This document shows positions 1 through 60,308 of a DNA stretch of 64,000 nt, one piece after another (within the stretch, counting starts at the first letter, position 1; every line of letters starts with the position of its first letter). Under the pieces are notes generated by a model. That model was given only the letters and a program-made list of their open reading frames with translations, ran no database searches and had not been told where the DNA came from. Made by a program: the position numbers and the translations under genes. Source of the DNA: Vermamoeba vermiformis (lineage: Eukaryota); NCBI GenBank assembly GCA_045837725.1, contig JBEWZL010000135.1, positions 1-64,000 on the forward strand, given 5' to 3'.

Positions 1-706
1 TATGCTGTATTAGAAATGTAAGCATAATGTAAATAAAGTTGTAATTACCATAATCGATAGTAAATTCTTCTCCTTTTGCAATATCTCTTTTAGCCTTAAT
101 TCCGCGGTACTGGCATGCTTCCTTTGTGCTCCAAAATAATTCCCAGCGGCAATTTGGACTTTCAGAGTGGTTTATCCACCTTCCATATCCTCTGGGATCA
201 TTTAGGTGTGACTTGCCATCAATAATGAAGGTTCCATCATCTCGAACGTACGTGGCATCCAGCAGTTGATCTCGGTATTCCTTTGAGAGGACTTTCCCAA
301 GGTAAAGGGTTACCAATTCGTTAGCCTTGTAATCCCTAGTTGCAAACAGCCCTGGAAACTGTAAGTTAGTACGAGAACACACTTAGGTCGAGAATGCAGA
401 TGCATTTAAAAATCAACAAAAAATAATTAAAATCAAATACAATATATAAATGATACCTTTTCCCTCAATAGGTGAATTGCTGATGATTGGTGCAGGCTTT
501 TCTGCGGTCGAGCTGGTGAATTCTTGGACAAGTGGATCTGCTGCTTCTCCTGCTTTAGAAAGGGATTTTGCGCATGAGGCGCATATAGTGTTCTTCTTTC
601 TACCTTTAATGTTAATGTTGGCTGTAGCAGAACACTCCCATTCTGGCCTCAATTTCCGCCAGCCCGATGAGGTTGTGGTCTTGCATATAACACAATATCC
701 TCTCAT
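1..706 (-). CDS. C4 (GATA-like) zinc finger + SET-domain lysine methyltransferase; 3' end runs off the window
   Basis: Exon 706-457 encodes MRGYCVICKTTTSSGWRK...ICASC...SPIEGK. Splicing GT(456) to AG(352) gives SPIEGKGLFATRDY. Exon 351-49 then encodes GYGRWINHSESPNC and AKRDIAKGEEFTIDY, the canonical SET motifs (GxG, RxxNHS..PN, GEE.T.DY). A further intron lies at 48-5. Confidence 0.85.
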
Positions 707-883
707 TTTAGCAATATGCACATGTGTATTACAGTTATTAATAAAGGTATACATTAACGAAATAAGAATTTGATGCTTGTATAACACAAAAAAATTGGAG
801 CAATCCATTGAAGCAAATGCACCTGCTAATTATGAGGTGCAGGTGCAGGTGCAGGTGCAGAAATCAGACAAATTTACGAAAAT

Positions 884-1867
884 TTATTTGTCTTGTTCTT
901 TAGCACAAAGTGCTTGCACCAAATATTTTCCCCAATCTTCGACAACTGATTGAAGAATAAAAAGAGCAATACCACTCCATTCGACATCTTCTCGACCCTT
1001 GGTAAAATTTTTTGTGATCGTCAGAACGCCCCTTTGGAACTCGTGCTTATCCACCTCAAGTTGTGCGTCCTCCTTTAGCCATTCAACTATCTGTCTAGGG
1101 TCTTCTTTAAACAGATGTTAGCATAATTAGTTGTTGGAGATTTAAAAGGTTAAACTTGCCGGATGAAATCTCTGCGATCGCCGTGGATAAATCTTGCTCG
1201 CTATCTTCTTCCAATTGCTGCTCTGTGGTTTGGCTGTCAGCAATTGTTGTTGAATTGAGCTCGATCTTTTTTTGTGGCTCTAATGTCTCGTGTTCAAGCT
1301 TCCTTTTCTTTGTTGCGGGCATATCCTCTTCAATCAATGATCTAATTGCCGATTGTGGATAATGTCTATCTTTCACCTCCATTTCTTCATCTATTTCTTC
1401 ATCAATGGCCACGGATTCATCAACATACTCTTTGAGGCTACCAACACGTCCTTTCGTATTGAATCTAACATTAACTGGCTCGTCATTATTATTAGCATAA
1501 TTTTCATTAATTTTTTCACTTTTCTTCGGCTTTGTTTCTTCAACGTGTATCTCAAATTCTTCTTCGATGAGCAGATTATCTTTACTTTCATCCTCATTTA
1601 CCAATTTTGTTTTTGTTGCAGGTGAAATTGGTGGAGGTTTTCTCTTTACTTGCTTTTGACTATAAAATATTACGTAATGTTCATTAAATATTAAATTATT
1701 ACTTACTATATCGGTATATTATCTCGAGATTTGGCTACTATAATTTTTGAAGGAAATACATAAATTGGTTGTGGGCTGGTTTTAGGAATCATAGCAATCC
1801 TCGTGGATCTTCTTCTTTTACCAACTCTTCTTCTTTTTGACTCATCTCCGCTTTCACTACTTGACAT
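884..1867 (-). CDS. Orphan acidic/basic protein with NLS-like motifs (3 exons)
   Basis: ATG at 1867 (MSSSESGDESKRRRVGKRR), ORF 1107-1604 (PATKKRKLE), last exon ending EQDK* at 884. The second intron appears to use a GC donor. No recognised domain. Confidence 0.6.
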
Positions 1868-1926
1868 TTTGTTGCCGTTTACAAGGCGTAAAAAATTAAA
1901 AAAATATGTTTTAGTAAATTCGAATC

Positions 1927-3171
1927 ATGAAGAAAAACGACAGGTAAAAGGAAAGTGACATGAATGTCACTAACATTTAATTAAAAGGTACAATCTGATA
2001 GATGGAGCTTTGTTCGATAGAACAGCTCGTAAGATATGGGTGTCGAATGTTTGGATCGCTGGCGTGTCCTCTGCAGATCCACCAAAAATTTCAAAACTAA
2101 TTTCGGACAAATACTCAAAGCTAGGTAAGTGCAATTAATATTTATTTGAATCGTAATACTAAGAAATTGATTTTAATTTTATTTTTTTATTCAACCAGAT
2201 CAGTCTTGGTTTATTCGAAAGCTCAATATTGAAACGCCTCAATCCATTAATTCTTTGAATTGGGTGGAATTGAGCACTGCACTGAAGATATTTGGAGAGA
2301 TTGACTCAGATCCAGCAGTCGTAACCGAACAAATTAAGTAAGTTTTTTATTATGTTTTATTTCTCAAATTGAGTCTAATACCAGTTATACTAGTAAAATG
2401 ATCAAATTATTCGAAGTGGCAAATGATTTCAAGGTTGAATGGATCAAAAGGAAGAGACAAATTAAGTTGACACGAACTTATTCTGGCAATTCGGTGGAGA
2501 CAGTAGTCAGTTTTAAGGCAGCTGCCACCACAGGCACTGCATCAACAAAGCCATGGCGGGCACATGTTGTGCCCAAATCACAACATGAGGAGGAGGAGAT
2601 TAGAGAGGAGCAAGATGCTATGGACAACATTGTCAAGTACGCTGGCATTCTATTACAAATTCATTCAACAGTTATTGCCAATGTTTATGGAGTAAGTACA
2701 TGTAAGTATAACATTAATGATCGGGCTAACCATTTTATTAAGATCGAAGATGCCACAGATGAAGTGCTAGCAAAAGATCCAACTTTTGGGGAGAATGTAA
2801 ACTTAGAGAGCCTACAACAAACTCGAGGTATGCTGAAAGGCATTACGCAGGATGAAACGGCCCAGTCATGTCAAGTTTGGGGGTACCAGCCAAATTTAAA
2901 GGCAATAGCAGATCCCAACTTTGATACTTGCCATTGGTTTCAGGGCTTGTACCCTCCGACAGTAGCCGAAGTTGCACAAGCACATGCACATGAACATGCA
3001 CCTGCACCTGCACCTGCACCTGCAGATGAGTCCCTCGATAGTGACTTGCTGGTGCACGAGGATTCATCATTATCAGAATATGTCCCCATGGACGAAGATA
3101 TTGGAGATGATGATGCTAGTAGCAGTGATAGTGTTGAAATGAGCTATTCTCGTTCTAGCGATATTTTGTAA
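1927..3171 (+). CDS. Orphan protein, possible N-terminal DNA-binding domain, acidic C-terminus (4 exons)
   Basis: In-frame spliced reading MKKNDRYNLIDGALFDRTARKIWVSNVWIAGV...LNWVELSTALKIF... joins ORF 2398-3171. AATAAA follows the stop. Confidence 0.6.
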
Positions 3172-3230
3172 ATAAATAAAAATTGTAGTTGTTCGGTACA
3201 TTTTTTTTGTTGCAGAATCCAAACAAACTC

Positions 3231-4099
3231 ATGGCTTCATCTTTTAAAAAGTACTGTATCAATCCAATATTCATTATTACTCTATGTTGTAGTATTAACA
3301 ATGGTTTTCATCGCAGATCTGGACAAACTAGGAGAAAGCTTACTTTTTGCTCTGTTGAAATACAAGCAGTCTCAGAGCCTGGTGGAAATCTCTTCATCTC
3401 AGATTTGGTGAGTTTCAATTTAAATTAAGCATTTCTACAATTTTAAATTTTGTTTTCTTAATTCGAGAACTATTTTATTTAAATTAAATAATTAATTATT
3501 CTTCATTTAATTACTCAGAAAGCCTACCCTGATATTCCGGGCCTCCTTACAATAGGTATAAAATTGCTGGACCCTTGCAACTTAGATCCGATCCACATTG
3601 TACGTCCGTCAAAGTTTGACTTGGTCGACAAGAGCAGATTAATGGCCAATTTTCATCTTGCTTGTGGAGTCTCTCTGCTGTGCGATTGGTTTGCAAAAGA
3701 ACAAAACAGCTCTGTGATGGCAAGATGTTGAATTACTTGGCTTCAAAGGGGAAGATCAAGTACATGATGGCACTTGTCGCTCAAGGAGTTGAACCTACCA
3801 GCGATACATGTGAAGCAGCTGCTTTACATGGTCAACTTGCCAGCCTGATCTACTCGCATACAGTTCTTCGTGCCCCTCTCGGAGTTTCTTTGGAGGCTGC
3901 AGCCATTGGAGATCATGGGTGTATAATTGATTACGCCGTTTTTGTTGGTTGGAACACTGGTACTTCTCTCTGGCAAATTGCTGCAGCTCATCGATCGTCC
4001 TCTGTACTTCGGGTGATCGTGAATGCAAATCATCATTGTGATCTCTATGCCATAAAGAAGATGTCACTGGACTTGTATAATGAGGTTATGCAAGAATAG
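3231..4099 (+). CDS. F-box-like + degenerate ankyrin-repeat protein (Pandoravirus/amoeba type)
   Basis: Four exons splice in frame. SLSAVRLVCKR is F-box-like, and TCEAAALHGQLASLIY and LEAAAIGDHGCIIDY are ankyrin-like repeats. Confidence 0.65.
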
Positions 4100-4365
4100 T
4101 CAGAATAAAAAAATTACCTTTGCGACAGGTGCAGGTGCAGGTGCATGTACAAGTGCAGGTGCAGGTGCATGTGCACCAGTACCAATGAGATGCACGCACT
4201 GGTGCACTGTTTATCTGAAAGGTTCTGCAGCTTCCAGAAACAATTCAAGTAAATATTTATGTGCTAAATACTTTTATGTGCATAATATAACTGAAAATAT
4301 CCAGCTCTCGTGACTTTGTGACTAACTGTATTTTTTGTTCAAAATATAGACAACTAAGGATAATT

Positions 4366-5020
4366 ATGGAACAGACGTATCGTGCCCAGCTTCAACGAGT
4401 GAATGAGCGCATTGAGCGCCTTGATTTCAAGATGTATATTGCAACACTCCGGATCAAAATGAGTATCACCTCCTTCATTGCGTGTAAGCATCTAATTAAT
4501 TTCAACAATATTATATATAAGACATATTCCACACTTTATTTTCATTAAAATACAAAGTAATTATATTTATGAATTGCAATTTATTTTTTTTAAATTCAGG
4601 TGCAACTCGGGATCACAATTTCGTTCCGCAGTCTCTCAGCATTAGTGAAGAGTATCAAAGAGCAAGAGAGCAGTTCCCAAACCACCACTTGTAAGTAAAA
4701 AATTATTTTTTTAATTTTTATTTCTAATATTTTTTTGCATAGTTTTTTGCAACATCCCGATGCCATCCATGCAACCACTCTGTACATGAGGGCCGCCAAG
4801 TTACGAGAACGCACTAGAATCAAGCTGGTTGGCGAACAAGCCAAGAGAGACGAAATCATTCGCTCCCTTATTGAGTGTAAGTACTTCTTTGTTTAAAAAA
4901 TTATTCTTTATTGTTTAAAACATTCCTATAGACCTTACAGGGCAGAATGTTGAGGCAGAGGGCCTATTGGTTGACCTCGACCAAGAACTGGCAGCTCGTG
5001 GTTATGTCCAACGCGAGTAG
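4366..5020 (+). CDS. Small multi-exon orphan coiled-coil protein
   Basis: MEQTYRAQLQRVNERIERLDFK start, several short exons with GT/AG boundaries, ends GYVQRE* at 5020. Confidence 0.45.
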
Positions 5021-5220
5021 TGTCTTCCAGCATGTAGCTTTTGTTCTTTGTTTAAAATAAAGAATTAAACTCGTTAATTAGCGTTTTCTTACTTGGCTAC
5101 GTGGTTGTGGCATGGTAGGTGCATGTGCAGGTGCATGTGCAGGTGCAGGTGCATTTTATGTTTTGGAGCTTGCTGCCAGAGGCTTCGGTTCCATGTTTTT
5201 TCTTTGAAACTACAGATTCT

Positions 5221-5388
5221 CAGAATTTCCTAATATGGTAATTGAGGCACGTGGAGACCGTCGGACGCGTCAGACGCCCTTTTCCAGTACATGAAATTTT
5301 TTTGCAAAGTAATTCTTCTGACAATTCCCAGAATTTCCTAATATGGTAATTGAGGCACGTGGAGACCGTCGGACGTGTCGGACGCCCT
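5221..5388. repeat. 60-bp direct repeat, 2 copies (5221-5280, 5329-5388)
   Basis: cagaatttcctaatatggtaattgaggcacgtggagaccgtcggacg(c/t)gtc(a/g)gacgccct; 58/60 identical by eye. Confidence 0.9.
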
Positions 5389-5540
5389 CCCCCCTTTACA
5401 TACCCTAACATCTTCCCCAAGCACAAAGACTACAGTCCAAAGTCGAACCTATGTGCCATCATCTCTAGACTGTTTGCCTCTCTTACGTACTTCCCCATTC
5501 TAATAGTATTAGCTTGATTGATGCAACACCTCTTTGCTTG

Positions 5541-6150
5541 AGGCCGTCAGACCGTCTGACGCACCCCCCCCTTGCCAGAGGCCGTCAGACCGTCTGACGC
5601 ACCCTCCCTGTCCCAAGGCCGTCAGACTGTCTGACGCACCCCCTCCTTGCCAGAGGCCGTCAGACCGTCTGACGCACCCCCCCTTGCCTGAGGCCGTCAG
5701 ACCGTCTGATGCCCTTTGCTGCCCCAGTGCAGGAAAAGGGGGTGCCTGTGCATGTGCAGGTGCAATGCCTTTGCACCTGAGGCCGTCAGACCGTCTGACG
5801 CACCCCCTATTCCAAGGCCATCAGACTGTCTGACGCACCCCTCCTTGCCAGAGGCCGTCAGACCGTCTGACGCACCCCCCATGTTCCAAGGCCGTCAGAC
5901 CGTCTGACGCACCCCCCCTATTCCAAGGCCGTCAGACCGTCTGACGCACCCCCCCTCCTTGCCAGAGGCCATCAGACCGTCTGACGCACCCCCCCTTGCC
6001 TGAGGCCGTCAGACCGTCTGACGCCCTTTGCTGTTGCAGTGCATGACTGAGGGTGCAGGTGCATGTGCATGTGCAATGCCTTTGCACCTGAGGCCGTCAG
6101 ACTGTCTGACGCACCCCCCCATCCCTAGGCCGTCAGACGGTCTGACGCCC
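5541..6150. repeat. Tandem array of 14 copies of the 17-bp palindrome CGTCAGAC-N-GTCTGACG, ~37-bp period
   Basis: Cores start at 5545, 5583, 5620, 5658, 5695, 5784, 5819, 5856, 5893, 5930, 5970, 6007, 6095 and 6131, with C-rich linkers. Two related ~70-bp TGCA-rich linkers split the array 5+7+2. Confidence 0.95.
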
Positions 6151-6570
6151 TCCTGCTGCACCAAGAACAAGGTTACCCATGTTTGAAGTACAATTTTATT
6201 TTAAAAACTGGCCAGCCCTGGCCCTAAACACCCTTTAATTGGTCAAATTCAGCTCTGCGAGAGGAAAAAATCAATGACGGGTTTTTACAAGGGTTGCAGC
6301 TCCATGATGTTTACGTTGGCATCACTTACACTCTTAAAATGTATGTTAATTCGAATTAGGCTTTTTAATAATTGGCTTACAGGCAACTGCAAATCAAAGA
6401 CTTGGATGGTGATGAGACAGAGAGTGAGAATGAAGAGGACAACTTGTCAGTCAAATCCGATGTTACAATTCGGAGAAAACTTTGTAAAAAATTTAAAAAA
6501 ATGGCACAACAATACAAGATAAATAAATTTAGTTAATCAAAGTTTATTTTATTAAGATGAGGTTTTGATT

Positions 6571-7130
6571 GAGGTTGCATCCTCCTGGACAACGACCTTC
6601 CTTGCCGAACAAGGTCGCATCCTCTTGGACGACAACCTCCCTTGTCGAACGAGGTCGCAACCTCCTGGACAACATCCTCCCTTGCCGAACAAGGTCGCAT
6701 CCTCTTGGACGACAACCTTCCTTGCCGAACGAGGTCGCATCCTCTTGGACAACAACCTCCCTTGTCAAATGAGGTCGCATCCTCCTGGACGACAATCTTC
6801 CTTGTCGAATGAGGTTGCATCCTCCTGGACGACAACCTTCCTTGCCGAACGAGGTCGCATCCTCTTGGACGACAACCTCCCTTGTTGAACAAGGTTGCAT
6901 CCTCTTGGACAACAACCTTCCTTGTCGAAAGAGGTTGCATCCTCCTGGACGACAACCTTCCTTGTCGAACAAGGTTGCATCCTCCTGGACAACAACCTTC
7001 CTTGCCAAACGAGGTCGCATCCTCTTGGACGACAACCTTCCTTGTCAAACGAGGTCGCATCCTCTTGGATGACAACCTCCTGTCAAAATGAGGTTGTGTC
7101 CTGTTGGACAACAACTTGCCGTCTAAACAA
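6571..7130. repeat. 40-bp tandem repeat, 13 copies plus 1 degenerate
   Basis: Consensus GAGGTCGCATCCTCTTGGACGACAACCTTCCTTGTCGAAC with an exact 40-bp period from 6571 to 7051. Confidence 0.95.
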
Positions 7131-7519
7131 GGTGAAAGGAGGTCACATCCCCTCACGCGGCAAGAAAAGCCCCAGAGGGCCACTAACAACCCCATAACCC
7201 ATAGGGTGGGCAACCCTAAATATATATAAAATTTACTATTCCCTTCCCTGTCTGCAAATATTGAACTTAGGACATCTTTGCAGATTTTCCTTTTCTTGGG
7301 CAGCATCTGGGCTGTTTTTTGTTGTCGAGTGTGGTGTTGCATTTGTGAGGGTGAGTAAAATGAAATTTTTTTGTTTCCAAACATTACTATTGAATTTCCT
7401 CCCTTTTTATTTAGGGAGGATATTTTTTCCCTCCCTGGCTCAGAGAGGGAAAGTTTTCTGCAAATGTTGCTTCTCGAGTTGAAAATCCCTTACTGCTTAG
7501 CAGTTTGTCTTGGAGGGAA

Positions 7520-7696
7520 TGGGGGGGAAACCCCCCCACACCCCCCAGCAACATTTTTTTCCTTTCATAGCCCAGGATGTTTTGATCTGTGCTTCGTTTC
7601 CTGATGCAATTTGTCCAAATTCGAGTCTCTAGAACATTTTCCATGATTGGAGACATTGGGGGGGAAACCCCCCCACACCCCCCAGCAACATTTTTT
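7520..7696. repeat. Duplicated 40-bp element containing a G7-AAA-C7 hairpin (7520-7559, 7657-7696)
   Basis: tgggggggaaacccccccacaccccccagcaacatttttt occurs twice. Confidence 0.9.
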
Positions 7697-7971
7697 CTCA
7701 TTTTTTCTTTGCTTTTGCCTTGCCGAAACCCCTTCGATCTCTGATTTTGTCCAGATTTTTCCTGATTTTCTGTTGTTTTTGCCTGATTTTCCCTCAATTT
7801 TGGAATTTTCGCCTCAATTTCCTTCGTTTTTCCCTTTGTTCTTTCGAAATCCCCTGTCTCAGGGAGGGATTGCCTTGTAGGGGAAGGGATTTTCATCACT
7901 CCCTGTCTTTCTTGTTGAATTCCCTTCTTGAGCCAAAGAAGGATTGTCTTTCGAAAACGGCTTTCACAACC

Positions 7972-8561
7972 CTAACCCCGATGTTTTTTGATATTTCTCA
8001 TATAAATCCAGTGCAGACTCTTCTTCGGCTCTGGGCTTAATGTCTTCTTTGGCCTCCTCTTCAATCGCATCCACGTGTGTGTCCAAGTCTTCTTCGAAGC
8101 CATCTCTTCATCGTCATAATCCAGCTCCAAGCCTTTGAGGTAATTGACGAATTCTTCTGCCGTGCTCACGTGTTCATTGATTGTTTTTTTTCCGTTAGAT
8201 CTGCTGATCCATGTGTGCAAGATGGAGTTGACCTCTTCTAGTGTCCAATAATTGGTCTTCAATATGGACTTGGCAGGTGAAGTGTCAGTAGTCCAGTGGT
8301 TGATTTGAAGACCTTTGAGTACCTTTGCAGGAGAAGGTTTGTCGGGTAAGTACTTATTCACCCTGGAAAGGAACGAATTAAAACTTATTCCCAGCAATTC
8401 TGCTATGGCAGAGCTATTAAGCCAGTGCTTTTGCCCGTCCGAGGTTGCCAAGTGGAAGTGACTGTGCTGAGAGTTGCACCAGCAAGAGTAAGTTTCTTTT
8501 CTAGTTGAGAGTAAGACAAAATATAATGGTGTAATTCATTTACTTACTTATCAAAGCTCAT
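7972..8561 (-). CDS. Orphan protein with Bro-N/KilA-N-like appearance; probable frameshift near 8105
   Basis: ATG at 8561 splices in frame to ORF 7972-8451 (HWLNSSAIAELLGISFNSFLSRVNKY). The acidic tract DYDDEE continues in another frame as DGFEEDLDTHVDAIEEEAKED. The domain call is resemblance only. Confidence 0.5.
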
Positions 8562-8719
8562 GTGTGTGTTATCGGTTCTTTTGTTAGTTCAATAAAGCGA
8601 TTTTTCATAAAAAAATAAATTTGTTATTTGATCCTACACCACTTTTAATATGTATTGGCAGTAAATTGATGAAAATCATTAATAACATATTAATACCTCC
8701 TACGGAAGTTATTCCTAGG

Positions 8720-9507
8720 TAAGGAATTTCAAACAGCACCTCTCATCACAGCATGCCAGACAAGCAAACAAAAGATGGCTTCAGTGCTCCACAACATCAC
8801 CTGAAGCCCATTGTTCACAGCACCTCTTCAAAGCAAGACACTTCATGTAAGCAAGTTGTCCCCACCGCTAAGAATGGACCTCAGCCATATGCCATACCCC
8901 AGGGTATTATTAGCCATTAAGCCCCCAAAATCAGCCTCATGGTGGAACTTCTTCAAAATGCAGCAGACCCCCAACTTGTGGGCCATGGCAGGATCAATCA
9001 CCACCCAGGATCCTTTGGCTCACCTGATGCAAACAAATGCCAACAGTTGCCCAAAGAGAGCCCCACCCACAAAACATGGTGCCCCCCCTTGTCAAACACC
9101 TACAAAGAGCCACTACCCAACAACGGACAGGTGCCTTTGCCAAATTTTCCAGCAGTGGTACACATTGATAGAAACGGCAAGGATCAGAAGCTCATTGTAG
9201 AGAAGTATCACAATCATCCGAAAGTCAACATAGAGCACATCATTCAAAAGTCAGATGTCTTTGGTGATGATGTTCAGCAGCCACAAACTCCTGCCTCTAA
9301 TGCCAGACCCAACCAGCCTTTAGCATCAAAAAACGTGATTGAAATCACTCAGACTGGCACTGTGGGAGAGCAAAGTACCTTCAGTCTTTGCTCAGACATT
9401 GTCATTGATGATGACAAGGAAATTGTTGTGGCTGAACCAGACAGAGAAGTCATCATCATTATCATGATGATGAATCACCTCCAAAAAAGAAGCACAAGCC
9501 AAATTAA
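8720..9507 (+). pseudogene. Degraded orphan gene with SIM-like motifs and a frameshifted C-terminal NLS
   Basis: ORF 8939-9544 has VIEI, DIVIDDD and EVIII. A shifted frame gives DDESPPKKKHKPN* followed by AT-rich sequence. Upstream frames contain stops, and CpG is nearly absent. Confidence 0.4.
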
Positions 9508-9697
9508 TTATTATTATTATTCCTTTTTTAATTTTAGACCATAGTTAGTGTATTTTTAGTTATCAATAATAATAAATTTTTACTTTCTAACCACCAATCA
9601 CAGGATAAAAACAAGTTGAACATTGCACATACCTTTCAATATCTGAGTCAGTCAGATGGCAGTGGTATCTGAAGGGCATCACCTTGCTTCTCTCTGA

Positions 9698-9910
9698 GTA
9701 CTTGCCTCTTACTATAAACCATTCATTCTTTCCACTGACGCATCCCTATCTGGTACCAGGGTGCAGTCCTCACAGGCTAGTGACAACAGTCCTCCTGAAT
9801 ATGTGATTAGTTACTACTAATGCCTGTTGCTACCAACAGAAAATAAATATTCAATCACTGAACTAGAGGTGTTTACAATGGTAAAGGCTATAGAACATTA
9901 TCACCCCTCT
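9698..9910 (+). mobile_element. Ty3/Gypsy LTR-retrotransposon RNase H relic
   Basis: Translates VLASYYKPFILSTDASLSG..Q...EYVISYY*CLLLPTENKYSITELEVFTMVKAIEHY. This matches the KPF.L.TDAS..G / Y.SR.L...E..YS..ELE RNase H pattern, with an in-frame stop. Confidence 0.85.
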
Positions 9911-10123
9911 ACTATTGCACAAGAATCTCCCTCACATGAGAAGAGAAGGTTGATGACAACTAATAGAGACTTGTTTGCCACTGTTGGTCAACCTCTGCAT
10001 CCATCCACTTGGTCATTCACTTCAATGTGTACCTTCAATTCACCATTACAATTACTGTTCTGCATCACCACAAGTTGTAGCTCAGAGATAACTGGAAACT
10101 TCATTTATTGGGTGCTTTACACA

Positions 10124-13100
10124 CTAAAAATAGCGCGAGTACAACATGATGACATCTTTCAAAAAGTAGCAATTGTTCATGAGTTGTTGGTGCTTCATTG
10201 CACTTGAAGGATCACTGACAGCCATACGTGCAGATGCAACTGTCCAACAATTAATTTCTGCAAGACTGCATTCATGTTTATTTAACTTACCCAGTAGTTG
10301 CCCAGTATCAGTTGCCTTCTGAATGAATTCCTTTGCTTTGTTATTTTGGTTGGCATCTGGCAAGTTGAGCGAGCCCAAATAATTTATCAACGCCTTCAAA
10401 GTGGAACCCAGCAAGTTAACACTGCTCATCAATGTTTGGACATTGCCAACAGCGCCTTGAATCTCATTGATAACAGTGGAGATAGTTGAGCCATACTTGT
10501 CAATTTCATTACCAACAGCGCTTCGCCCGGGTTTAGGAACGAAGTTTGCTGGTGTCGGAGCAGTAGTGACAGGTCGAGTAGGAGTGTTGTTTCCTCCACG
10601 CAAGTTCTCGCCAAATTCATCGTCAAAAGTTGTGCGAACGACAGGAGCAGGGTTTGGACGAGGGTTGAAGTTCATATCGCCCGAGCCTCGCTTGAAGGGC
10701 AGCAATGTCAGCCGTTGTTTTAGCCGGTAATGGTGGCGGCATTGTGAAGCCAACTGGTGCTCCAGAAGTTACATATGAAGTGTTTGACAAAGGACCCTTG
10801 GCAGGCAAAGGAGGTGGTTGAGGATTGGCACCAATTTGAGGTGGCAATTGACGAACTTCGAGATGAGCAACGTCGGCCAATTTGTTATCTGCAACAAGGT
10901 TAGTGACCATTTGTCATAATATTTAGGCTTCGGCTACATACCGACAGGACCGCTAGCTGAGCTCTCCAGTTGCTTTTGATCGAGAGTTTTAGCTTGTTTG
11001 AACAACTCGCGTTCTAATCGCTCAACAACCTCACGGTTAATTGAACGCACATCGACAGCAAACACAGCTCGCATTGGTCTGTGGTCAGAGAAGTGCATCT
11101 CGCAACGACCATAAGTTTCTAAATCGGCACGGCTGTATGGGTTGTTCTTGTTGACGAAGTACAAAATGCGATCAGTCCAGGCTGGGACACGTTGTTTCTC
11201 GCTCGTGTCATAACGATCAGTGCCAGAGTCGTACTTGTAAGTTGGAGCAAAGTCAAGGTTGCCTTCCTCGAAATCACGGAAGATGAGACCCTGACTCTTG
11301 GCAATGCGCAATTGGTCGTAGCGCTTCAAGTACTCCCAGTTCTTCTCCGTGATGCGAGTCAACGCCTCGAAGTAAGGAACGTTCAAGCGGAAGTTGAAAT
11401 CTCCAAGCCAGAACACGTAACTATGAGCACGTTAGTACAAGCATTTGAGGCTGCGGAGAATACTTACTCGTTGTCCATAATAGTGGAACCGTAAGTCTTG
11501 ATGGCACCAAATCGAATGCCGCTAGTAATGCCCTCAATGTCACTAATTCGGTCATTAACATTGTTTTGACCAGCACTCAGATGCGCGCACACGAAGCAGA
11601 AAGAGCTGTCGTTGTAACTGCGAGATTTGTTAGAAAAATAGTTGGCTAGGTAGGTCACGTACTCAAAGCGAACGGCCAGAGCACCCTTGTTGCCATAAAA
11701 GCCATAGAGACCAGTCTTAGAGTTCTCCAAGTGCAAGTTCTTAATGTTGTTCACTATATCTTCAGACACGAAGACGCACAACAAAATGCCGACGAGCTGC
11801 TCGGATCTCAACATGACCACCTTCTTTTGTCTGCGAATGTTAAGCTGATGAGTGACGACTTCCTCCCAAACTCGTCTGCTGTAATCGCTTGGGCTGCTGC
11901 TCATGACAGAGCCGACACCAAGGTCCACAATCTCTTGGAAACCAATGATCCAAACATCGACGCTATCATAATCAGTAACTTTAGGATTGAACCAGACGTC
12001 AAGATCGAAAGCCTTGTTTGGCGGCACTTGTGCGTTGACGTTGTAAGTACCAACAAAGACACGTTTCTTTTCAATGGTCGTGAATTCTTTCGAACGGGCA
12101 TTCAGTTGCGATTGTACCCACTTCTCTTCGATAGTCTACAAACTTAATTAGCACCGCATGTAGGTTAACAAGATCGCCGCTATTTACCTGCTCCATATCG
12201 TCTTGGAAGTCTTCAATGGTACCCAAAAAGAAGTCAATGGCTTCTTGCTTGTTCTCGTCACTGAACTTGGCGTGGTAGAGACGAGTGACAGACTTGACAC
12301 CGTCATCCAACAAGCCAGCCAAAGTGCTCTTGCCTTTACGAGTGTACGAGCTCTTCATGGCACCAGTTCCTGCATAGACCTTTGAGATTACGTCTCCGTG
12401 GTTGGCCCACATCGTGTTGAAGGCTTGACCAAGTCGCGAGACCTCTGAGATGTGACCCTCACCACCCATCTCAATAACAATGTTGGACAACGCAGCACGA
12501 GCAATCGCAGTTTGGGTGACGTTGGTTCTGTCCAAACAGTCCAAGCAGTTGGTCCTGTAAATTCCGCGTTGAACCTTGTGTTGTTTTCCGGGCTTAGTTG
12601 ACCACATGTAGAAGCCACATGCTTCGATGTCTTTTTGGATACGATGGATCAAGTTCCAAATGCCAGAGAAGTCACGCTTGCCGCACTCAGCGTGGAAATC
12701 AAAATAGTTGTACTTGATGCTGTCGCTCTTGTAACGGCGCTGCACATTTGTTAGTATAAGCGCAATTCATAGTTAAGTTGTGATGACTTACCAATTGCTC
12801 TTCGTAACCTTGGGTAACACTCTCTTCAGAGCTCTTGCTCTTGGTCAATAAATTGACAATGTGTAACGATTTGTACAACTTTAAGACCTCTTCTACGTGC
12901 TTTCTGAAAGCAGGAGCGGCAGCCTCTGGAGGTCTTGTGATGGTCAACTTGCCGGGCTTCTCTTCCCAAAAAATTGGAACCGAACCACGAATTTGAACGA
13001 ACGAGATGAGTGTATCTTGCATGACCACCAACTGTTCTGTCTCCCAGAAATTGGCCACATTGCCATCGTCGTTGATACCACGAGTGTTGTAACGAGTACC

Positions 13101-15285
13101 AGCACGCATGCAACTGTTACGCGTGAACAAGCAGAAGTCGAAGGGCTCCTTGGTTTCGGGCATGAAATGCTGTTGGTCAATTTGGAAGCTACCACGAACA
13201 AAGACCGAAATCCACTCGTGCAATCGCTTGCTGATGAAGTGGCGCATTAAGTATCTGTTCCAAAAGAATCTCTTGTCGGCAACTTTCCACACGGGCTAAA
13301 TAGTCGTTAGCGACAATACGGACAACAACTTTAACGTACCTTTGATTGCAATTCAGCAGACAACTCTTCTTGTCGTTGCACGGTGTGAGTCAAGTGATAG
13401 TCGTACGAGAAATACATATTGCCCTCCTCGACGAACTTTTGTACCTTCGATGATCTGTAGCTGATGTAAACATCGGTAAATAACTCTAATATTGGGATAC
13501 AAATATATCACTATCTGTAGTTGGTAAACACTTACGGAGGCTTGAATTGGCCCGTGGAGTAATCAAGTTCTTTTCTGTAATCGAAGCTGATGAACTTAGT
13601 GCCAGTAACACAAAAGATTTCAGCGCCGCGAATTGAGCCGATCATCGTAGCTTCAGTGACCAAGATCAAAAATGACTCGTTTTCCAAGTTGATAATACCC
13701 ATAACGGCATAAGCGTCGATAAAGGTGGCCACACGAGTGTCGGGAGCTCTGTCCTTATCTAAAATCCAAGTTACTCACTGATTTTAAACCAAATGTAGTA
13801 ACGTACCCTTGAAGCGAGTGAAAGCACCAGGATTAGCACCCTTTCGCTCAATAATCAACGGATCTTCGTTGTTCGAACGAGCGTTACGCAAAACAAAAGC
13901 GTCAGGAGTAGCAAAGACAGAGATAGGCTTCTTGGTTCTACCACAACACGTGTTAGTTGGCGCGACTTTTTGGATAGTTAGAAAAGACATACAAAGGTTT
14001 CAAAATAGTGTTGCGAGCGACAATTGGTAGTGGCTTATTCTCAATTGATGCACTCGGGGCCGTATTATTAACAATTGATGCGTCAACTACCGCCACGGAG
14101 TTGTCAGCAGGCGTCGCACCACTGTTTCTGAATGGGTGATGGGTTGGATGGCGCACGAGTACGACCAGGGACCTGGCTCTGCACAAATCGTAAGGTGCAC
14201 GTTCACTACAATAAATTTAGAAAACTTACGGGTGCTGGTGACACAGGAGTGGAGTGATAACGCGGGTTAGACCCATCACTGAAAAATTGGTCGTCGTACT
14301 TCTAACAAAGAGTGTTAGCAAAAATGTTCTCAAGTGCGGTCAAAGCAATTAAACGTACGTTTCCTGCTGAGCTGCCAACGACAGGAGTGGCTGGGGTGGA
14401 TTGGCTAAGGTAATTCGGTTGCGCAGTTGCACCGGTGTTAGAATGCATCTGTCCGAAATCTACGTAGTCATCGTAGCTCTTAGTGGGAGCTACGTTTAAA
14501 AAAAATAAAGTTTGTTAGTTCGATCGACATTATTACCGTTACGAGGAGAATCAACTAGATTTCGTAAGCAAATTTAATGATAATGCTCGCTATAATAAAA
14601 TGAAATTGCACTTAACACGTTGTAATTTTGGAAAATAAACCCCGTAGAAAGATCCTTCCGCTAGATCGGCTAATTCGAATTTTAAAAAGTTAAGAAAAAT
14701 AGCCGTTAGAGGAATCCATAAAGTACGTGATTAATTTGTACGGGTGCATTATATTACACAAGCTAGCTAGCGAAGGAATACTGATCAGCAGATCAGCCGA
14801 AAATTTAATAGATTTGGCCCGACGCTATCTCAATTAAAAAAACTATCGAAAAAGAACATGTTACGTAACCATGTTTTAATTTAGCACAAAGGCCATTGAG
14901 GTAATTTCACAATTGAATTAAATATTAAAAAATATAATTTTCGAATTTTACTCGGTTACTTACTGGGCGCAGTATTGACAAATGGATTTGTTGATGCGAC
15001 ATTTTGACCAGTTTGGCCATAGCCTGGAGGCCAGCCTTGAGGTGGTACTCCCTGTTGGGGACCACCGACGTTCGGGCCGTAACCAGGAGGCCAGCCTTGT
15101 GGCGGTACTCCTTGCTGTGTATAAACAGCGTTTGGAACGTAGCCAGGAGGCCAGCCTTGGGTCGTTATTTGTTGAGTATAACCGGCGTTTTGATTAACGA
15201 ATGGATTCGTTGATGAGAGATTCTGCTGTTGTCCATTCGGGCCATAACCAGGTGGCCAGCCCTCTGGCGGTATTCCGTTTTGCAT
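10124..15285 (-). CDS. Synaptojanin-like phosphoinositide phosphatase (Sac1 + inositol 5-phosphatase)
   Basis: Sac1 motifs RFFWN, RAGTRY..RG, QIRGSVP and RTNCLDCLDRTN (CX5R). 5-phosphatase motifs GFQE, FWLGDFNFR, PTYKYD, PAWTDRIL and SDHRP. The GWPPGY/NPF exon 15285-14964 splices in frame to downstream exons. Apparent 1-bp frameshifts near 10681 and ~14135. Confidence 0.92.
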
Positions 15286-53250: not shown

Positions 53251-56200
53251 ATGAAGCTCTTTTACCTATTTATTATATTTTTAGTGTACTTTAGTTGCGC
53301 AAAAGCGCAGACCATTGATTGGTCTCTCTGCCCTGCGAATGGTAAGTTCCGGAGTTACAAAGCATCGAAATTCTAACAGTCTTGTTGTAGCTAGGGCTGT
53401 TTTCCAAAATGTTACGTTTGTTAGGCCACTCTCTTCACAGTTTTTATCAAACGTTAGAGCGGTTTTTCCCGAATTAAAAACCCCGAATCCATTGCTAGTG
53501 AATCAGAATATGAACGTCTTCCTTCAGATTACATCGGATAACACCACCATCGACCTTACGTACATCTTGTCAATCACCGGTAACAGAAACTCCTTCGGTT
53601 ACTACTTGTACAACCCGGCCAACGAATCCATCTTTGCTAACCCTGGTTTGGTGATGCTCTATCCTCTGCTCAAGGACGTAGTGCCTGCTTACCTACCCGC
53701 TGGTTGCATGAACCCTGGCTATACTATCACGTTGGGACCTTTCCGTGCGGGTACCATAATAGGGTTCTTCATTTACGTGTAAGTGGTATGAAACGCGTTT
53801 CATTCAAAAAACCAACAAAATTTATTTTTAGAAACGCATGGTCTAATGGCACTAATCCATTGAACCTTAACGCTCAAAGGTGGTTCAGTTTGACTGGCAG
53901 AAACGTAGTCAACACTGACGGTAACAAGCACGTATCTTGGGCGAATATCGACGGACGAGTTGTCTTCGGATTCGAAGATGCGAGCATGGGTGACCGTGAC
54001 TTTAACGACGGTATGAAAATCCTATTATATAGTTGACATAGGCTAATCTTTTCATCGTAGTGATGTTCTTCTGGAGCGTCAACGGAACTTACAACGAGAG
54101 TGCGATCAGCAAGTACGAAGATGGTTTCATTCAAGGTTGTATCGTCGCCAATATCATCAAGTTCGCTGACGTGGGCTGTCTACGCTATGCTATTCTTGAG
54201 AACACCAACTCACTCGGTAAATATGACGGAATTAAATTTATTTAACGATCAGTGCTAATTTTATCCTCAGGCTGCCAGAGTTTTATTCGCATTCCCGATG
54301 GCTACATCATCGCTCCTAACAACCAAGCAACGCTTAATGCAATTGCTGCGGCCTCTTCGACTTTCGCTTGGTCCGGTTCCGTATCTACATCCAATCTGAT
54401 CCTCAACGGTACTTGCGTGCGACCTGATGGCTCAGCCTGCACTTCACAAACCAATATCACATCCTACAAAGTGGATGGTCAATGCATCGGAACACCTTGC
54501 ACTCATCGTATCTTGCTCAGAACTCAGTACAACTTGCCCGGATGCACTGGTCTGGAGAACAACTTCTGCGACCCTAACATTGGCTCAACAATTATCAATC
54601 GCGAGCCTAGCACTCCTTCAACGAACAAGTCAGTTGACCCAGTGACTTGGGTGTCTTACGTCGTTCCTTCCAACGCCAACCCGACCGCCACTCTTGCTCT
54701 CACTTTGACCACTTTCGCTAACAACGAGCGTCCTTTGGATGTTATGATTGCTGTAGACCTCAACGGGATGAGCGCTGCTGACTGGGATACCTTTAGGTAA
54801 GTAACTCACTCAGCCTTCGGTCGAATGCAAGTTACTAATGATTGCTGCAGAACCAATGTCGTCTCATTCGTGTCCACTATCTCCGCTGCCTTCCCTCGCT
54901 CGATGCAGCTCGGCTATGCTATCCTTCGTCAAAGCACTATGGATGTCTCAGCATTGAGTACCGATGTATCAGGCACTTCAACGAGATTGCAAGGTGTTTC
55001 GTTGGGTACAACCTTCACTGCTTCTACATCGAACATCTACAGCAACGTGGCGACTTTGATGTCCAACGCCGGCAACGGCTGGCGCAGTCTCAGCAACAAC
55101 CCTGGCTTGTCGGTCATCGTTGTTGTAACCAAGACCGCTCCTGCTAACACCGGTCTTGCAACCCTGCAATCGGCTTCGGCTAGCAACAACATCATCCCTA
55201 TCTTCATCGCTGATGGTTCTGTTGTGACTTCATACCAATCCGTGTCTTTGCCGTTCTTCAACGCTAGCACTCAAGTATTCCCGAGATTCGCCACTGCTGC
55301 TCAATCTGCCATTACCTGGGCTGCTGCCACCTCGGCCATTACTCCAGTAGGCACTTTGGATGCGCAATTCGCTTCTGTATTGCCCGCTGTCACACCAGTT
55401 GCTGGCTTCCAAACAGTCAACTTAGTGTTGTCTTATCCTCGTCCTGCTCCTGCCAATTACGTTTCGCCCACAACCCTCACTTACGTCGTTTGGGGTTATG
55501 GTCTTGCTTACGTTAGAATGCACGCCAACTTGCCTCCTACTTTGACCGGAGCTAGCGTCGGCGCTGATGAAGATACCAACACGCAATTTTCGTTGAGCAC
55601 TGCCTTCTCTGATTCACAGAACAACAGACTTCAGTTCCGCTTCACTTCATTGCCCGCAGCGAACGTTGCTTCGATCACTTTGAACAACAACGCCGTCGGA
55701 TTGAACACTTGGTACCCTGCGACGAATACCTTCAATGTGCTTGGTGCAGCGAACTACAACGGTGCATTTTCAGTGAATGTACTCGTTTCAGACGGTTGTG
55801 AAAACACTACTGGTGCCATTCCCTTCACCATTCGCCCTGTCAACGATCCTCCTACGGCTCAAAGCTTTGGTGTCACGATGCTGGAAGACGAGCCCACCTT
55901 GAGCAAGCGCACTATCAACTTCAACAGTTCAATTGCTGATATTGATAGCCCCACTCCTATTGTCTACATTTCCAGTTTGCCTACAAACGGTCAACTTATG
56001 TTCGGTTCGACCTTTGCTACTGCGGTCACCCGAAACACACCTATCCCTGCTAACGCTGTTCGTTTCAATCCTGACCCGAATTGGAACGGTGTCACTTCCT
56101 TCATGTACTACGTGCAAGACAGCTCTGGTGCAAACTCTCAATCTGCTACTGTCACCATCACAGTTACACCTGTCAATGATCCTCCTACTTCCAACGACAT

Positions 56201-59200
56201 CACTTTGACAACTTACGAAGACACCGTGTTGACTATTGACCAAATTACTGGTTCTGATGTTGAAGGAGACGAATTGACCTTGATCATCACTCAGTATGTC
56301 ACCTCTGGTTCCTTGAAGTTGAACAGCGGAAACTTGGGCAATCTTCCAGCTTCGGTCACTGACACGTTGCTCTATACCCCTCCTGCGGATCAGAGTGGCT
56401 CTCCATTCACTACATTCAAGTTCCAATTCTCTGACGGTACTGACTTGTCGCCAATCTACACTGCTACCATCAATGTGTTGCCAGTCAATGACCCGCCAAC
56501 CGGAACTGACTTCACCGTCAACACCAACGAAGATACTCCTTTGACCATTAGCTTTATCAACCCTGCCCGCATCAGTGATATCGACACGGCTACTGCCAGT
56601 CTTACTGTCACGATCCGTAGCATTGGCAGTTCCTCACTTGGTGTTCTCCGTCAAACTTCTGCCAGCACCACCAACTTGGCTCAGGGCACTCAGTTGACGC
56701 AACAAAGTGTCTACTTCATTCCTCAACCCGATCAAAACGGCGCGTTTACGTTCACTTATGACGTTTCTGACGGTCAAGCCAGATCACCTTTGTACACGGC
56801 TACAGTCAACGTAATTCCCATCAACGATGCACCCACCCTCTCAACATCAAACAACGTCGTCCTTACTGACCGTCAAGTTCCTGCAGTCTTCTCATTGTAC
56901 ATTCGTGACGTCGATGATGGTGACTCTCTTACTGCTCGTGCCACTAGTTTGTCAGTGCAAGCGGCTGACGGAGCTGTTGCTGTCGTCACACCATCTGTTT
57001 CCGTCACATCTGGGGCTGTCACTGTCTTGAACACTTACAGCAACAATGACGGAGCTACCAAACAACTTGACATTCAATGGACTCCTAGTACCACCGCCCC
57101 CAACACCCTCAACGGTACCGTTACATTCCAAGTCACTGATAACAGCGGTGCTACTTCCAACGTTGTCACTGTGTTCCTTCGTGTCAGCGCCAACAAGAAC
57201 CCTACTGTCAATACAGTGCCTGACATTGTGACCGACGAAGATGTGACTTTCCTTAACTACAAGATTGAGGCCCAAGACGGCGATGCTGGTCAAAGCACTA
57301 CTCTCACAGCTTACATCGCGAGGTTGCCTGACTTCGGAACACTCGTATCCAACGGTTTAGATTACACGACTGCTGGTGTTGCTTTGGGTGCCAGACAAAC
57401 GACCTCCTCGACCACGTTCTATCGTTTGAACTACCGTCCCAATCCTAACTACAACGGTCCTGACTCGTTCACGTTCTACTTCGTTGACGTTCTTGGCGGA
57501 TCTTCTGCTGTTCAAACAGTGGACATTACTGTCAACCCCGTGAATGATCAGCCCATCACTAACGGATTCTCTGTCACTACTAAAGAAGATACAATGGTCA
57601 CCATCACTCAGTTTACTGTCAGCGATGTTGATGTTGGCGATACCTTCAAGTTGGTCATTACCGCTTTGCCCGCTCTTGGCACGCTTCGTCATCCTGCCGG
57701 TGACAACAGTGTAATTGCTGTCAATGAAGAGATTTCTTACAGCGACGCCGCTTCATGGGAATTGCGCTACACTCCACCTGCCAACGCTAACGGTTCACCT
57801 TTCACTACCTTCAAGTTCCGTGTACGTGACTCATCTGGTGCTGCCAATGATCTGTCGGCTGAGCAGATAGTCACCATCAATGTGCTCCCCGTTAATGACG
57901 CACCTGTTGCCAACGACATTAGCCTCACCACTAATGAAGACACTGCCACTACTTTCCTCTTCTCCGACTACGTATCCGATGTCGATAACACTGATGATCA
58001 ATTGACTGTGACTATTACGTCTTTGCCTACTAATGGTCGATTGGAAATCACTACTGATGGCAGCACTTACACTACCGTCACTCAAAGTCAATCCTTTGCA
58101 GTTAACTCGTTCAACACTCGCTACATCCCCGCAACTAACTACAACGGCGATGATTCCTTCAACTGGTTCGTGCAAGATCCTTCTGGCGCCACTTCTGCTG
58201 CTACCGCTTCCATTACCGTTAATCCAGTTAACGATGCTCCTTCGTCCCAAGACAAGTCCGTAACTACTATCCGCGACGTTCCTGTGGATATCACCAACTT
58301 CTTGGTGACCGACGTGGACAATGACGATTCTGAAATCGATCTGATTATCGTCACCTTGCCTGTAGTTGGTACTTTGAGCGATGGCTCCGACTTGACAGTT
58401 AATGACTTGCCTTACAATGCCGGAAACAACCCTTCGAGCCAAGTTCTTAAATGGACTCCTCCTGACTTGAGCGGTGTTTTGGTCAATCCCAACATCCCCA
58501 TCACTACGTTCACCTTCAAGTTGAATGACGGCACTGACGATTCTCCTGTCTACACTGTCTCCGTGTACATCTCTTACACCAACACTAAGCCTCGCAGTGA
58601 GCCTTCTGTGACTTACATCGATGAAGATACTATTGGTACCATCAAAATTCTGGCTGTTGATTTGGAGACACCCGAATCCGGTCTCAGCGTGAAGATCGTC
58701 TCAATTGCTCCTAGCTCCATTGGCACTTTCTACACTGATGAAGCTTTAACCCAAGAGGCTCAAATCGGTGCCTTCTTGCCCAACAACAGCAAGAACTTGT
58801 TCTACGTTCCTCCTCCCAATGCCAATAGCGCTAACGGTCTTCCTTTGGCCACATTCACCTTCCAGATCCGTGATGGTGAAGACGGCTACAGTCCAGTTTA
58901 CGACGGTCTGGTTTACGTCAATCCTGTCAACGATCCTGCTGTCTACAATGGCGAATCAACCCTTCAAGCCAAAGAAGATGAGGTCTTGAACATCAACTTG
59001 GGCTCTCAGCTCACCGACATCGATTCACCGGGCGACATTGACTTGTACATTGTCAAGACTGTCGCTCGTGGACAGCTCTATGTTTGCGCTGAAGGCTCAA
59101 ACCCTTGCCAACAAGTGGCAGTGAACAACGGCGACAAGTTGTCTGGTACTCAACGACAACTCAAGTTCTTGGCCGCTGCTAACGAGAATGGCGCCAACTA

Positions 59201-60308
59201 CACCACCTTCTCCTTCCAAGCTCTTGATTCTGATGGTCTTTACAGCGCTACTTACGTCATCACCATTGATGTCCTGCCAGTCAACGATCCTCCAGTGCTT
59301 GTTCCTCACTACAACATCCTTCCTGACCGTGTTGTTATGTACGAGGACAGCTCACTTGTGCTCGAGTGGGACGCCACTGATATCGACAATGATGTCTCGA
59401 CTCTTGTTGCTCGTTTGACCTCTGCAGTTCCTGACAACGCTAAGCTCTACGAATGCGATGTCACTGACGGTGCTTACTGCAACCAAGGCAAGGAGTTAGC
59501 GCCGCCCGTTGAGTTGAACAGCCCCTTCAGAAATGGTACTTGGAGAGTTCTCTTTGTTCCTGATGAAAACGCCTACGATGACCGCAACTTCGCTACTTTC
59601 TCAGTGGTCGTTACTGACGGCGAAGACGAGTCTAACACTGCCCGCTCCATCATTCGTGTCAGACCTGTCAACGACGCTCCTGTCATCGAAGCTGCATCTA
59701 CTGACTTCGTCTCCAACGCCGACACCACTGGCTTCTCTCGCACACCTCTCGCTTCATTCGTCATTAGCGACATTGACGCCAACAGAAAACCCATCGAGTT
59801 GACTATCACTAGTGAGGCTGACACTGGTTTCTTTGAATTTGGCAGCCAGTTGAACGACGTTCCTTGTGTCATTGAGCCTAACCGTATCATGTGCTTGGCG
59901 CCTCAAGCTGATTTGCGTGAGATCTACATGGCCAACTTGTTCTTCGTGAGCAACATCACCTCGCAAACGACCTTGAACATTACTGTCAATGACTTGGGCA
60001 ACACTGACTACGAGAACAGACCACTCAACACGACTGTCATTGTGCGCATCTTGTACAAGTCAGATACGGGTCTCATTGACGAACAAACTACCGACAACAC
60101 GCTCACCATCGCCTTGTCGGTCTCTGCTGGTGCTGTGGCCGCGGCTGTTGCCATCACCATTTGGCAAGTGAAGAAGAGAAACGCTGCTGTTGATGACTAC
60201 TTCGACAACATTACTAGCATGAACACCACTGCTTCGACTTCAGCGATCTATGCTGGTCGATTCCAAGAAGGTACCAACCCGTTCTATGAAGTAAACACTG
60301 GCAAATAA
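53251..60308 (+). CDS. Sib-like (similar to integrin beta) type I adhesion receptor
   Basis: Signal peptide, DUF4114-like GFED...DRDFND, VWA-like PLDVMIAVD, ~13 cadherin-like/bacterial Ig repeats (VNDxP), one TM, and a tail with SAIY and NPFY. Confidence 0.85.

Follow-up and report, generated by a model that had tools for sequence, protein, structure and literature searches.

To our knowledge, all eukaryotic rolling-circle transposons described so far use HUH enzymes. VANDAL transposons, with their VANC proteins, carry element-specific tandem arrays of CpG-rich motifs and counteract silencing, and in Rep_trans systems the conserved nick site adjoins an inverted repeat that is specific to the family. 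Helitrons insert in a fixed orientation at AT or TT without target duplication, and the right ends of Replitrons coincide with translocation breakpoints (PMC10288648, in excerpt). Read-through of Helitrons upon terminator bypass has also been described (PMC6431247, in excerpt). The catalytic order of Rep_trans is D/D/Y/E (PMC5714925, PMC13107129, both in excerpt); a 2026 paper regards initiators of this type as bacterial with one archaeal sister family, and Rep-Arvir has K-x-Y and is unrecognisable by sequence (PMC13107129).

Here we analysed a stretch of 64,000 nucleotides of Vermamoeba vermiformis (contig JBEWZL010000135.1, positions 1 to 64,000; the window), which starts at the contig end in a 43-Mb genome with TTAGGG telomeres. 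Positions 1-10100 comprise five or more stacked fragments, and sharp joints lie at 6239, 7232 and 8007. Elements A (1-6239), B (6236-7232) and C (7229-8007) are the inner ends of three different repeat families, and the synaptojanin-like gene beside them is the outermost host gene on this chromosome end. The features are as follows.

1..6239, no strand: element A, centromere-side part; 96% copies in contigs C43, C83 and C61
2..715, minus: C4 zinc finger-SET gene, intron 456..352, 3' end outside the window; from Pfam SET, the GT-AG intron and motifs
884..1867, minus, exon limits approximate: orphan acidic/basic low-complexity gene; from ORFs
1986..3171, plus, exon limits approximate: orphan gene; from ORF 2338-3171
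3301..4099, plus: ankyrin-like cargo gene; 33% identity to ORFs of elements in C267, C264 and C251
4366..5020, plus: small multi-exon orphan adjoining the array; exons 57-58% identical at the same position in the C258 element
5216..5388, no strand: 65-bp dimer of element A (units at 5216 and 5324) with a CGTC-N9-GACG-type site
5528..6165, no strand: 37-bp array with palindrome CGTCAGACCGTCTGACG; 12.6 copies in 5540-6165, plus more
6210..6239, no strand: invariant end of element A, ..CCCTAAACACCCTTTAAT, joined at TAAT within element B
6236..7232, no strand: element B remnant, end ..CCCTAAATATATATAAAAT; invariant end joined at AAAT within element C
6571..7115, no strand: 40-bp array of element B; 13.6 copies, 86% matches
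7229..8007, no strand: element C remnant, end ..CCCTAACC..CATATAAAT; invariant end
7510 and 7647, no strand: 50-bp dimer of element C; from repeat search
8002..8606, minus: fragment D, older element gene; 88% DNA match in C243, 32% protein match in C117
8646..9594, plus: fragment E, element gene; 86% DNA match, inverted inside the A-related element of C258
9821..9910, plus: LTR retrotransposon remnant, weakly RNase H-like; Pfam RT_RNaseH_2 misses the cut-off at E=0.008
10124..13800, minus: host synaptojanin-like gene; from ORFs and spliced RNA reads, labelled by eye and after the earlier note

An earlier note on this DNA had described one coherent island around a non-coding core with four kinds of structured repeat. 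The repeats are real, and the sharp joints divide the four types among three different elements, so that the supposed island is a stack of truncated ends from several subtelomeric element families. It is very probable that this region is a pile of cut-off mobile elements at a chromosome tip that has been replaced repeatedly, and that it has the structure of one-ended elements.

With regard to the genes, a scan of the window and the element ORFs with Pfam and PHROGs gave SET as the sole solid match inside the window. The zinc finger-SET gene proposed in the note was corroborated by a SET domain at 2-351 (Pfam E=1.5e-16, scored on the C43 copy) with the motifs GxGLFA, RxINHS and DYG, whose exon continues in frame across a 105-nt GT-AG intron into the C4 zinc-finger exon; a homologue in C258 is 35% identical, and a diverged homologue gave a weak GATA match (E=0.04). 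The F-box/ankyrin gene placed at 3620-4096 matched neither F-box nor ankyrin in Pfam, its ankyrin likeness being seen by eye only. The orphan at 884..1867 found no match in Pfam, and its last exon has a 39% match in C258; the orphan at 1986..3171 found no family in Pfam or PHROGs, and its frame at 2338-3171 is open in the C43, C83 and C61 copies. Regarding the claim of intron-containing orphan genes, the SET intron and orphan ORFs with AT-rich gaps were observed, and the automatic exon models of the other genes did not resolve. The SET, ankyrin-like and orphan genes are cargo. RNA runs X17 and X19 came from a diverged strain, with many differences that extend to the host gene, and their matches to element A were all poly-T artefacts. 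Synonymous and non-synonymous differences between element A copies were very few.

The genome copy search recovered element A at 96% in C43 (1-6151), C83 (1-6024) and C61 (2114-5647), as well as a diverged relative in C258 that shares the SET and zinc-finger genes and has a palindromic array and an end of its own. Thus the genes are multi-copy, rather than single-copy and syntenic, and travel together with the arrays, as expected from the mobility that the note had suggested. In C43 and C83, element A runs at least 2 kb past the contig start before the end of another family cuts it off (joint C43r:2556). Sites of the type CGT[CA]-N9-11-[GT]ACG number 13 in 5200-6200 versus 5 in 53.8 kb of host DNA, and the 37-bp array is a candidate for initiator or anti-silencing binding sites. 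The end of element A was found at 14 genomic sites, versus none in the reversed control; 13 of them finish in AAT, with 12 different flanks, and all 14 share one orientation, no more than about 20 kb from a contig end. The same end stands on a new flank in an independent isolate (run X3).

Across the genome, at least 14 end types have a common sharp terminus, which consists of a CCCTAA-like motif, a short spacer and TATA..AAT and usually stands beside a subterminal array of family-specific palindromes. Without exception, the 95 junctions studied near contig ends, representing 14 end types, had the same polarity, and reused, base-precise ends are carried on 92 different flanks. A degenerate pattern of the end gave 40 matches versus 1 in the control, all 40 in the last 20 kb or so of a contig and in one orientation. 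The target was AT at 24 of the 27 joints having an intact target copy (AT background, 7.7%), and the bases downstream were unbiased. A composite unit common to C257 and C124 was dropped, its end not being AAT. Since the arrays adjoin the invariant end in most families, including families that showed no SET gene, a role as origin or initiator site fits them at least as well as a VANC-like module.

In each family a single precise end is joined to a target AT with no loss of target DNA on the inner side, and from this end the element extends toward the telomere; on the outer side the element is truncated by the next element or capped by the telomere. Several elements pass directly into (CCCTAA)n, their outer ends at telomeres differ from one another, and insertion into earlier elements has left nested stubs such as A in B in C. 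Each element has only one joint. The outer target flank was missing in 18 of 20 pairs, both exceptions being insertions into the same family, though the lost flanks could sit past contig ends because the telomere was reached in only 3 of the 20 pairs (flank absent in 2 of those 3).

Long copies of the elements contain X1, a large orphan gene. Its 27 matches are spread over 17 contigs and, where lengths are known, lie at contig ends and point outward; the X1 elements of C209 and C164 are 83% identical and both end near the telomere. X1 is absent from element A in every assembled copy and unrelated to the long ORF of family C, which has no family assignment in Pfam or PHROGs; the element A of the window is truncated or non-autonomous. 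X1 is the most widely shared element gene, and its catalytic-type residues are invariant across copies only 20-35% identical. These motifs, D/D/K-x-Y/R-x-E, follow the order of Rep_trans nickases, and all five X1 motifs (hDxD, Q..GK, QD[LI]A, hKxY, RhE) were found in 6 of 8 genomic copies, one miss being a contig end and the other an exon that was left out. In a structural model with pLDDT 82.8, covering one exon and about half of the domain, Tyr and RxE are on beta-strands; searches with it (pdb, viral, pdb_via_wide) returned no Rep, the best Z of 6.5 belonging to helical bundles and Z of 5.0-5.5 to helix-grip folds. A first fold with pLDDT 49.6 had been set aside, its search being meaningless. 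In the ESM Atlas, the first X1 query reached Rep_trans/Phage_CRI clusters at 0.88-0.89, under the lead threshold of 0.9, and the second gave no usable match. The hhalign score against Rep_trans proteins (five, then nine) was 16.9 versus 12.5-22.5 for shuffled controls, PF02486 found no match in the genome with its positive control detected, and a PDB sequence search with X1 gave nothing. Outside the genome, relatives of X1 numbered 5 and 7, all of them unnamed proteins and one a repeat artefact; longer proteins and a metagenome scan yielded none. These results leave a Rep_trans-like X1 as a motif-level lead, for which the profile and fold searches gave no confirmation.

We propose, with a probability of roughly 0.55, that one-ended rolling-circle transposons rebuild the chromosome tips and are moved by X1 as a Rep_trans-like tyrosine nickase. 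The X1 protein would bind the family-specific palindromic array, nick at the TATA..AAT end and, like the transposases of Helitrons and IS91, link the 5' end to a 3'-OH of the target at AT. In the absence of a terminator, replication by the host would copy the donor outward to its telomere, or would break and be capped by telomerase. The old chromosome tip would be lost, so that only events near the tip would survive. The SET, ankyrin-like and LRR-like cargo may shield the element from silencing. The odds are about even that these elements form a new eukaryotic rolling-circle superfamily, with a TBP-fold (Rep_trans-type) tyrosine transposase, a single end, its own palindromic iteron array and chromatin- and ubiquitin-type cargo, which copies out to the telomere. 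The analysis did not reveal a helicase, a circular intermediate or a de novo insertion.

The same one-ended elements might instead be moved by X1 as another kind of nuclease or recombinase, or joined by another element gene. None of the statistical tests tied X1 to Rep_trans and many element ORFs are orphans, but the wide sharing and invariant residues of X1 make this reading unlikely, though worth keeping in mind. Terminon-like retroelements, whose RNA ending in ..TATAAU would prime on broken ends with a Penelope-type or telomerase reverse transcriptase acting in trans, share the polarity, the truncation on the outer side, the capping by telomeres, the chains and the C-rich motifs that resemble telomere repeats close to the inner end (PMC6431247, in excerpt). 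We consider them improbable, because the targets are ordinary AT sites and not telomeric repeats, 74 + 22 chromosome-end ORFs contained no reverse transcriptase (the weak matches inspected were retroelements bearing tyrosine recombinase (YR)), an Rfam scan of positions 1-10500 gave no hammerhead and nine matches far under the gathering score, and genes on both strands appear to retain introns. Slightly more improbable still is a tyrosine-recombinase crossover at the AAT core that would join a chromosome arm to an element which is circular or bears a telomere: YR-like, chromodomain-bearing ORFs are present near several chromosome ends (by eye, with no Pfam match), but these YR elements each have two ends and CCCTAA boundaries of their own, and the AAT ends showed no reciprocal junction or inverted-repeat att site, with only 2-3 shared bases.

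Subtelomeres are mosaic in many protists, and the blocks shared by C163 and C236 extend into host DNA past the end, as would be expected if ectopic recombination and break-induced replication of the host had duplicated subtelomeric segments without a dedicated enzyme. Nevertheless, precise ends on 92 flanks, a common grammar over 14 types and the AT bias are unexpected from homology-driven exchange, and this explanation is largely refuted and very improbable. The endogenous virus also envisaged in the note, with oriP/hr-like arrays and virus-type cargo (vSET-like, ankyrin-like, His-Me endonuclease and DUF6939 genes), has a similarly slight chance, since the scanned element ORFs, with the collapsed outer parts absent from the assembly, gave no polB, capsid, packaging ATPase or integrase match, and the intron-rich genes and one-ended AT joints speak against it.

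If the rolling-circle reading by X1 is true, a eukaryotic Rep_trans-like transposase would bring this enzyme type to the third domain of life and form a new class of transposase. Independently of the enzyme, base-precise elements with one end that replace tips at AT are the DNA equivalent of the retroelement arrays at telomeres, and searches of the open-licence literature found no description of such elements. Moreover, the co-existence of at least 14 end types that follow a common grammar and differ in array core offers a ready test of binding specificity.

Compared with known systems, the elements resemble Helitrons in AT insertion, single orientation and gene capture. However, Helitrons, including Helitron2/Helentrons, have HUH RepHel/PIF1, neither of which was found in the elements, and the present elements are confined to chromosome tips, which they apparently replace. 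The elements showed neither a Helitron-type second end nor a CTRR hairpin, and the scanned element ORFs contained no RepHel, reverse transcriptase, capsid or HUH family match. All three PIF1 matches in the genome (control positive) lay more than 50 kb from any contig start and outside the fetched elements, and Helitron_like_N had none in the genome, its positive control being silent as well. IS91/ISCR and Replitrons share with them the helicase-free tyrosine transposase proposed here, one dominant end and a short target (PMC10288648, in excerpt), but their enzymes are of the HUH type and Replitrons are flanked by terminal direct repeats, whereas no HUH motif was recognised here and the units exceed 10 kb. 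VANDAL/VANC shares element-specific tandem arrays with CpG-rich motifs and chromatin-related cargo, though Mutator transposase and terminal inverted repeats are absent here. Terminons/Athena PLEs and the HeT-A/TART arrays of Drosophila share polarised head-to-tail chains, outer truncation, telomere caps and many accessory ORFs; in contrast, the present elements have no reverse transcriptase (the RVT_1 genome matches all lie outside the fetched elements) or hammerhead, target non-telomeric AT and carry genes on both strands. Finally, Rep_trans proteins (pT181 RepC/RepD, PF02486) have Y-x-K and the R of RxD, whereas X1 has K-x-Y without that R and is a far larger, intron-split, eukaryotic protein with helical insertions and a proposed transposase function. 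The invariant element ends next to family-specific palindromes parallel the nick site of Rep_trans, and K-x-Y recurs in Rep-Arvir. What X1 shares with Rep_trans and Rep-Arvir at the level of motifs is the order D, D, Tyr and RxE and the beta-strand positions.

The window covers the opening 64 kb of contig C135, in a eukaryotic genome of 43.3 Mb in 309 contigs, whose telomere repeat is (CCCTAA)n. Host genes start only at about window position 10124; farther in, at 53285-60308, the host region holds a gene for a large cadherin-like repeat surface protein (1835 aa ORF). The features discussed here are as follows, with contigs of the same assembly designated by C and a number.

Features (window positions unless a contig is given).
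1-6239, element A
6236-7232, element B
7229-8007, element C
8002-8606, fragment D, older piece of element genes
8646-9594, fragment E, older piece of element genes
835-860, 2973-3028, 4126-4175, 5117-5153, 5740-5764 and 6052-6075, both orientations, (GGTGCA/TGCACC)n hexamer runs in element A
C4:3-2255 and C270:1-2214, family C orphan ORF, no relation to X1

The earlier note had read the first 10,100 bases as a candidate selfish island; three base-precise joints reveal instead a stack of several element ends. A genome search gave 64 matches, every one near contig ends, and alignment of the copies placed precise inner (centromere-side) termini at 6239 (A), 7232 (B) and 8007 (C). The joint of A lies within B, at TAAT, and that of B within C, at AAAT; intact copies of B and C carry on outwards past these points with different sequence. 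The genome has 14 copies of the A end, against 0 in the reversed control. All of them face inwards and lie no more than 13.3 kb from a contig end; 13 finish in AAT, on 12 different flanks. In a second isolate, the A end is joined to yet another flank. In one read run (labelled X1, distinct from the gene of that name), the contig over fragment E, at window positions 8477-9505, had a depth of about 8, against about 60 in adjoining single-copy host DNA, a hint of variation in this chromosome tip between cells or between homologues.

Walking outwards led to further families with the same end grammar, namely CCCTAA-like motifs (one or two) followed, after a short spacer, by TATA..AAT. A search with a degenerate form of this pattern gave 40 sites, against 1 in the control; none lies farther than about 20 kb from a contig end and all point in one common direction, and they include both ends of chromosome-sized contigs (e.g. 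C124 and C239). One additional end type gave 15 matches, of which one lies 48 kb inside C260 and three are on contigs of unchecked size. The polarity was common to all 95 junctions of 14 end types in fetched contig-end stretches, which were picked mostly for containing hits. An intact homologue was available for 27 of the 92 distinct flanks: AT directly precedes the joint in 24 of these and AAT in 17 (AT background, 7.7%), and the bases after the joint are unbiased. Of 20 pairs compared, 18 lacked the outer target flank; a telomere was reached in only three pairs, two of which lacked that flank. Twelve stretches start with a telomere: nine have a recognised end and one more has a variant of it, and of the five that were selected for the telomere alone, three do. 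On C44, the telomere adjoins an element's final 12 bases. These elements have a single precise end, target AT, share one polarity, keep to chromosome ends, nest in one another, are truncated or telomere-capped on their outer side, and carry cargo (probability about 0.9 for this structure).

H-type ends at C209:12138 and C84:908 terminate in ..TACTATAAA, suggesting that some families target AA (TT on the opposite strand) rather than AT. In family F, seven contigs (C108, C227, C239, C253, C179, C263 and C215) all stop at almost one base, so the young outer portion of this family has been collapsed and is absent from the assembled sequence.

With regard to cargo, the earlier note was right to see mobile DNA bearing arrays and chromatin-type genes. 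The SET domain is genuine, with a C4 zinc finger spliced in frame onto it, and the remaining genes are orphans. For the proposed F-box/ankyrin gene, the ankyrin assignment was made by eye and from ORFs of three further copies at chromosome ends, to which it is 33% identical. The proposed F-box, NLS and SIM features were not confirmed. The hexamer runs lie both within and between genes. Homologues of the SET, zinc-finger and small genes and of fragment E occur in a 12-kb relative of A on C258, which has palindromes and an end of its own. An element on C267 with the same end type carries the ankyrin-like gene and, 7-9 kb farther out, the large orphan gene X1; every assembled A copy ends short of that position. 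The family C ORF is intronless, at least 751 aa long and runs off the contig. Element chains also contain a His-Me endonuclease zinc-loop ORF (C243:8830-9999) and DUF6939 ORFs (C243:3026 and C130:585).

Other mobile DNA is found near chromosome ends. Tyrosine-recombinase-like ORFs at C205r/C163, C16, C117 and C85 had no Pfam match; several have a chromodomain-like tail by eye, and at least some copies are bounded by CCCTAA. They are possibly Crypton-like elements targeting telomeric repeats. The starts of C244, C3 and C24 hold apparently intact gag/RT/tyrosine-recombinase retroelements, of DIRS/Ngaro type by eye.

The 37-bp palindromic array, 40-bp array, 65-bp dimer and 50-bp dimer reported in the window are all real. 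In most families a tandem array lies no more than 1.5 kb from the end, and many families place their own core within a common frame, CGT[CA]-N9-11-[GT]ACG. There are 13 such sites in 5200-6200 versus 5 across 53.8 kb of host DNA, and none, by this strict pattern, in the B and C remnants of the window. The layout, a conserved joining site next to palindromes that differ by family, would be that of a rolling-circle origin. The arrays may also have a VANC-like anti-silencing role.

Scanned element ORFs contained no RT, RepHel, polB or capsid, and the lack of the last two makes a viral origin, as once suggested, unlikely. DDE transposases and tyrosine-recombinase-like genes near the ends look like separate insertions. 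The most widely shared element gene is X1 (27 genome matches), a large orphan with multiple exons; it lies on the outer side, and its transcription runs towards the tip. Its copies, only 20-35% identical, keep hDxD, Q..GK, QD[LI]A, hKxY and RhE. Rep_trans initiators are described as having Asp, Asp, Tyr in a beta-strand and RxE (PMC5714925; PMC13107129), and an archaeal sister family as having K-x-Y (PMC13107129). The motif order of X1 is the same, the pT181 sequence also being compared. Clusters of Rep_trans and of Phage_CRI came up at 0.88-0.89 in one ESM Atlas query, which counts as a lead only, and a second query returned nothing. A confident single-exon model (pLDDT 82.8), in which the N-terminal half of the domain is absent, runs strand, helices, three strands, helical insertion, strand and long helix, with Tyr and RxE on strands. 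This topology is, we presume, compatible with one TBP-like repeat. Fold searches with the model were negative for Rep, as were the PF02486 search of the genome and hhalign of X1 against Rep_trans. On balance, we slightly favour X1 as a predicted Rep_trans-type enzyme.

If so, X1 would nick at the element end and transfer the 5' end to an AT in the target. Replication by the host would copy outwards with no terminator, and the old tip would be lost, restricting survivors to subtelomeres.

In the literature covered, mostly open-licence with subscription journals thinly represented, no description of such elements was found. The superfamily works as one-ended transposition does in Helitron/IS91 (PMC10288648; PMC6431247) and resembles Terminons in its chain-like arrangement (PMC6431247), but it departs from Helitron, IS91 and Terminon alike, in each case in a defining feature.
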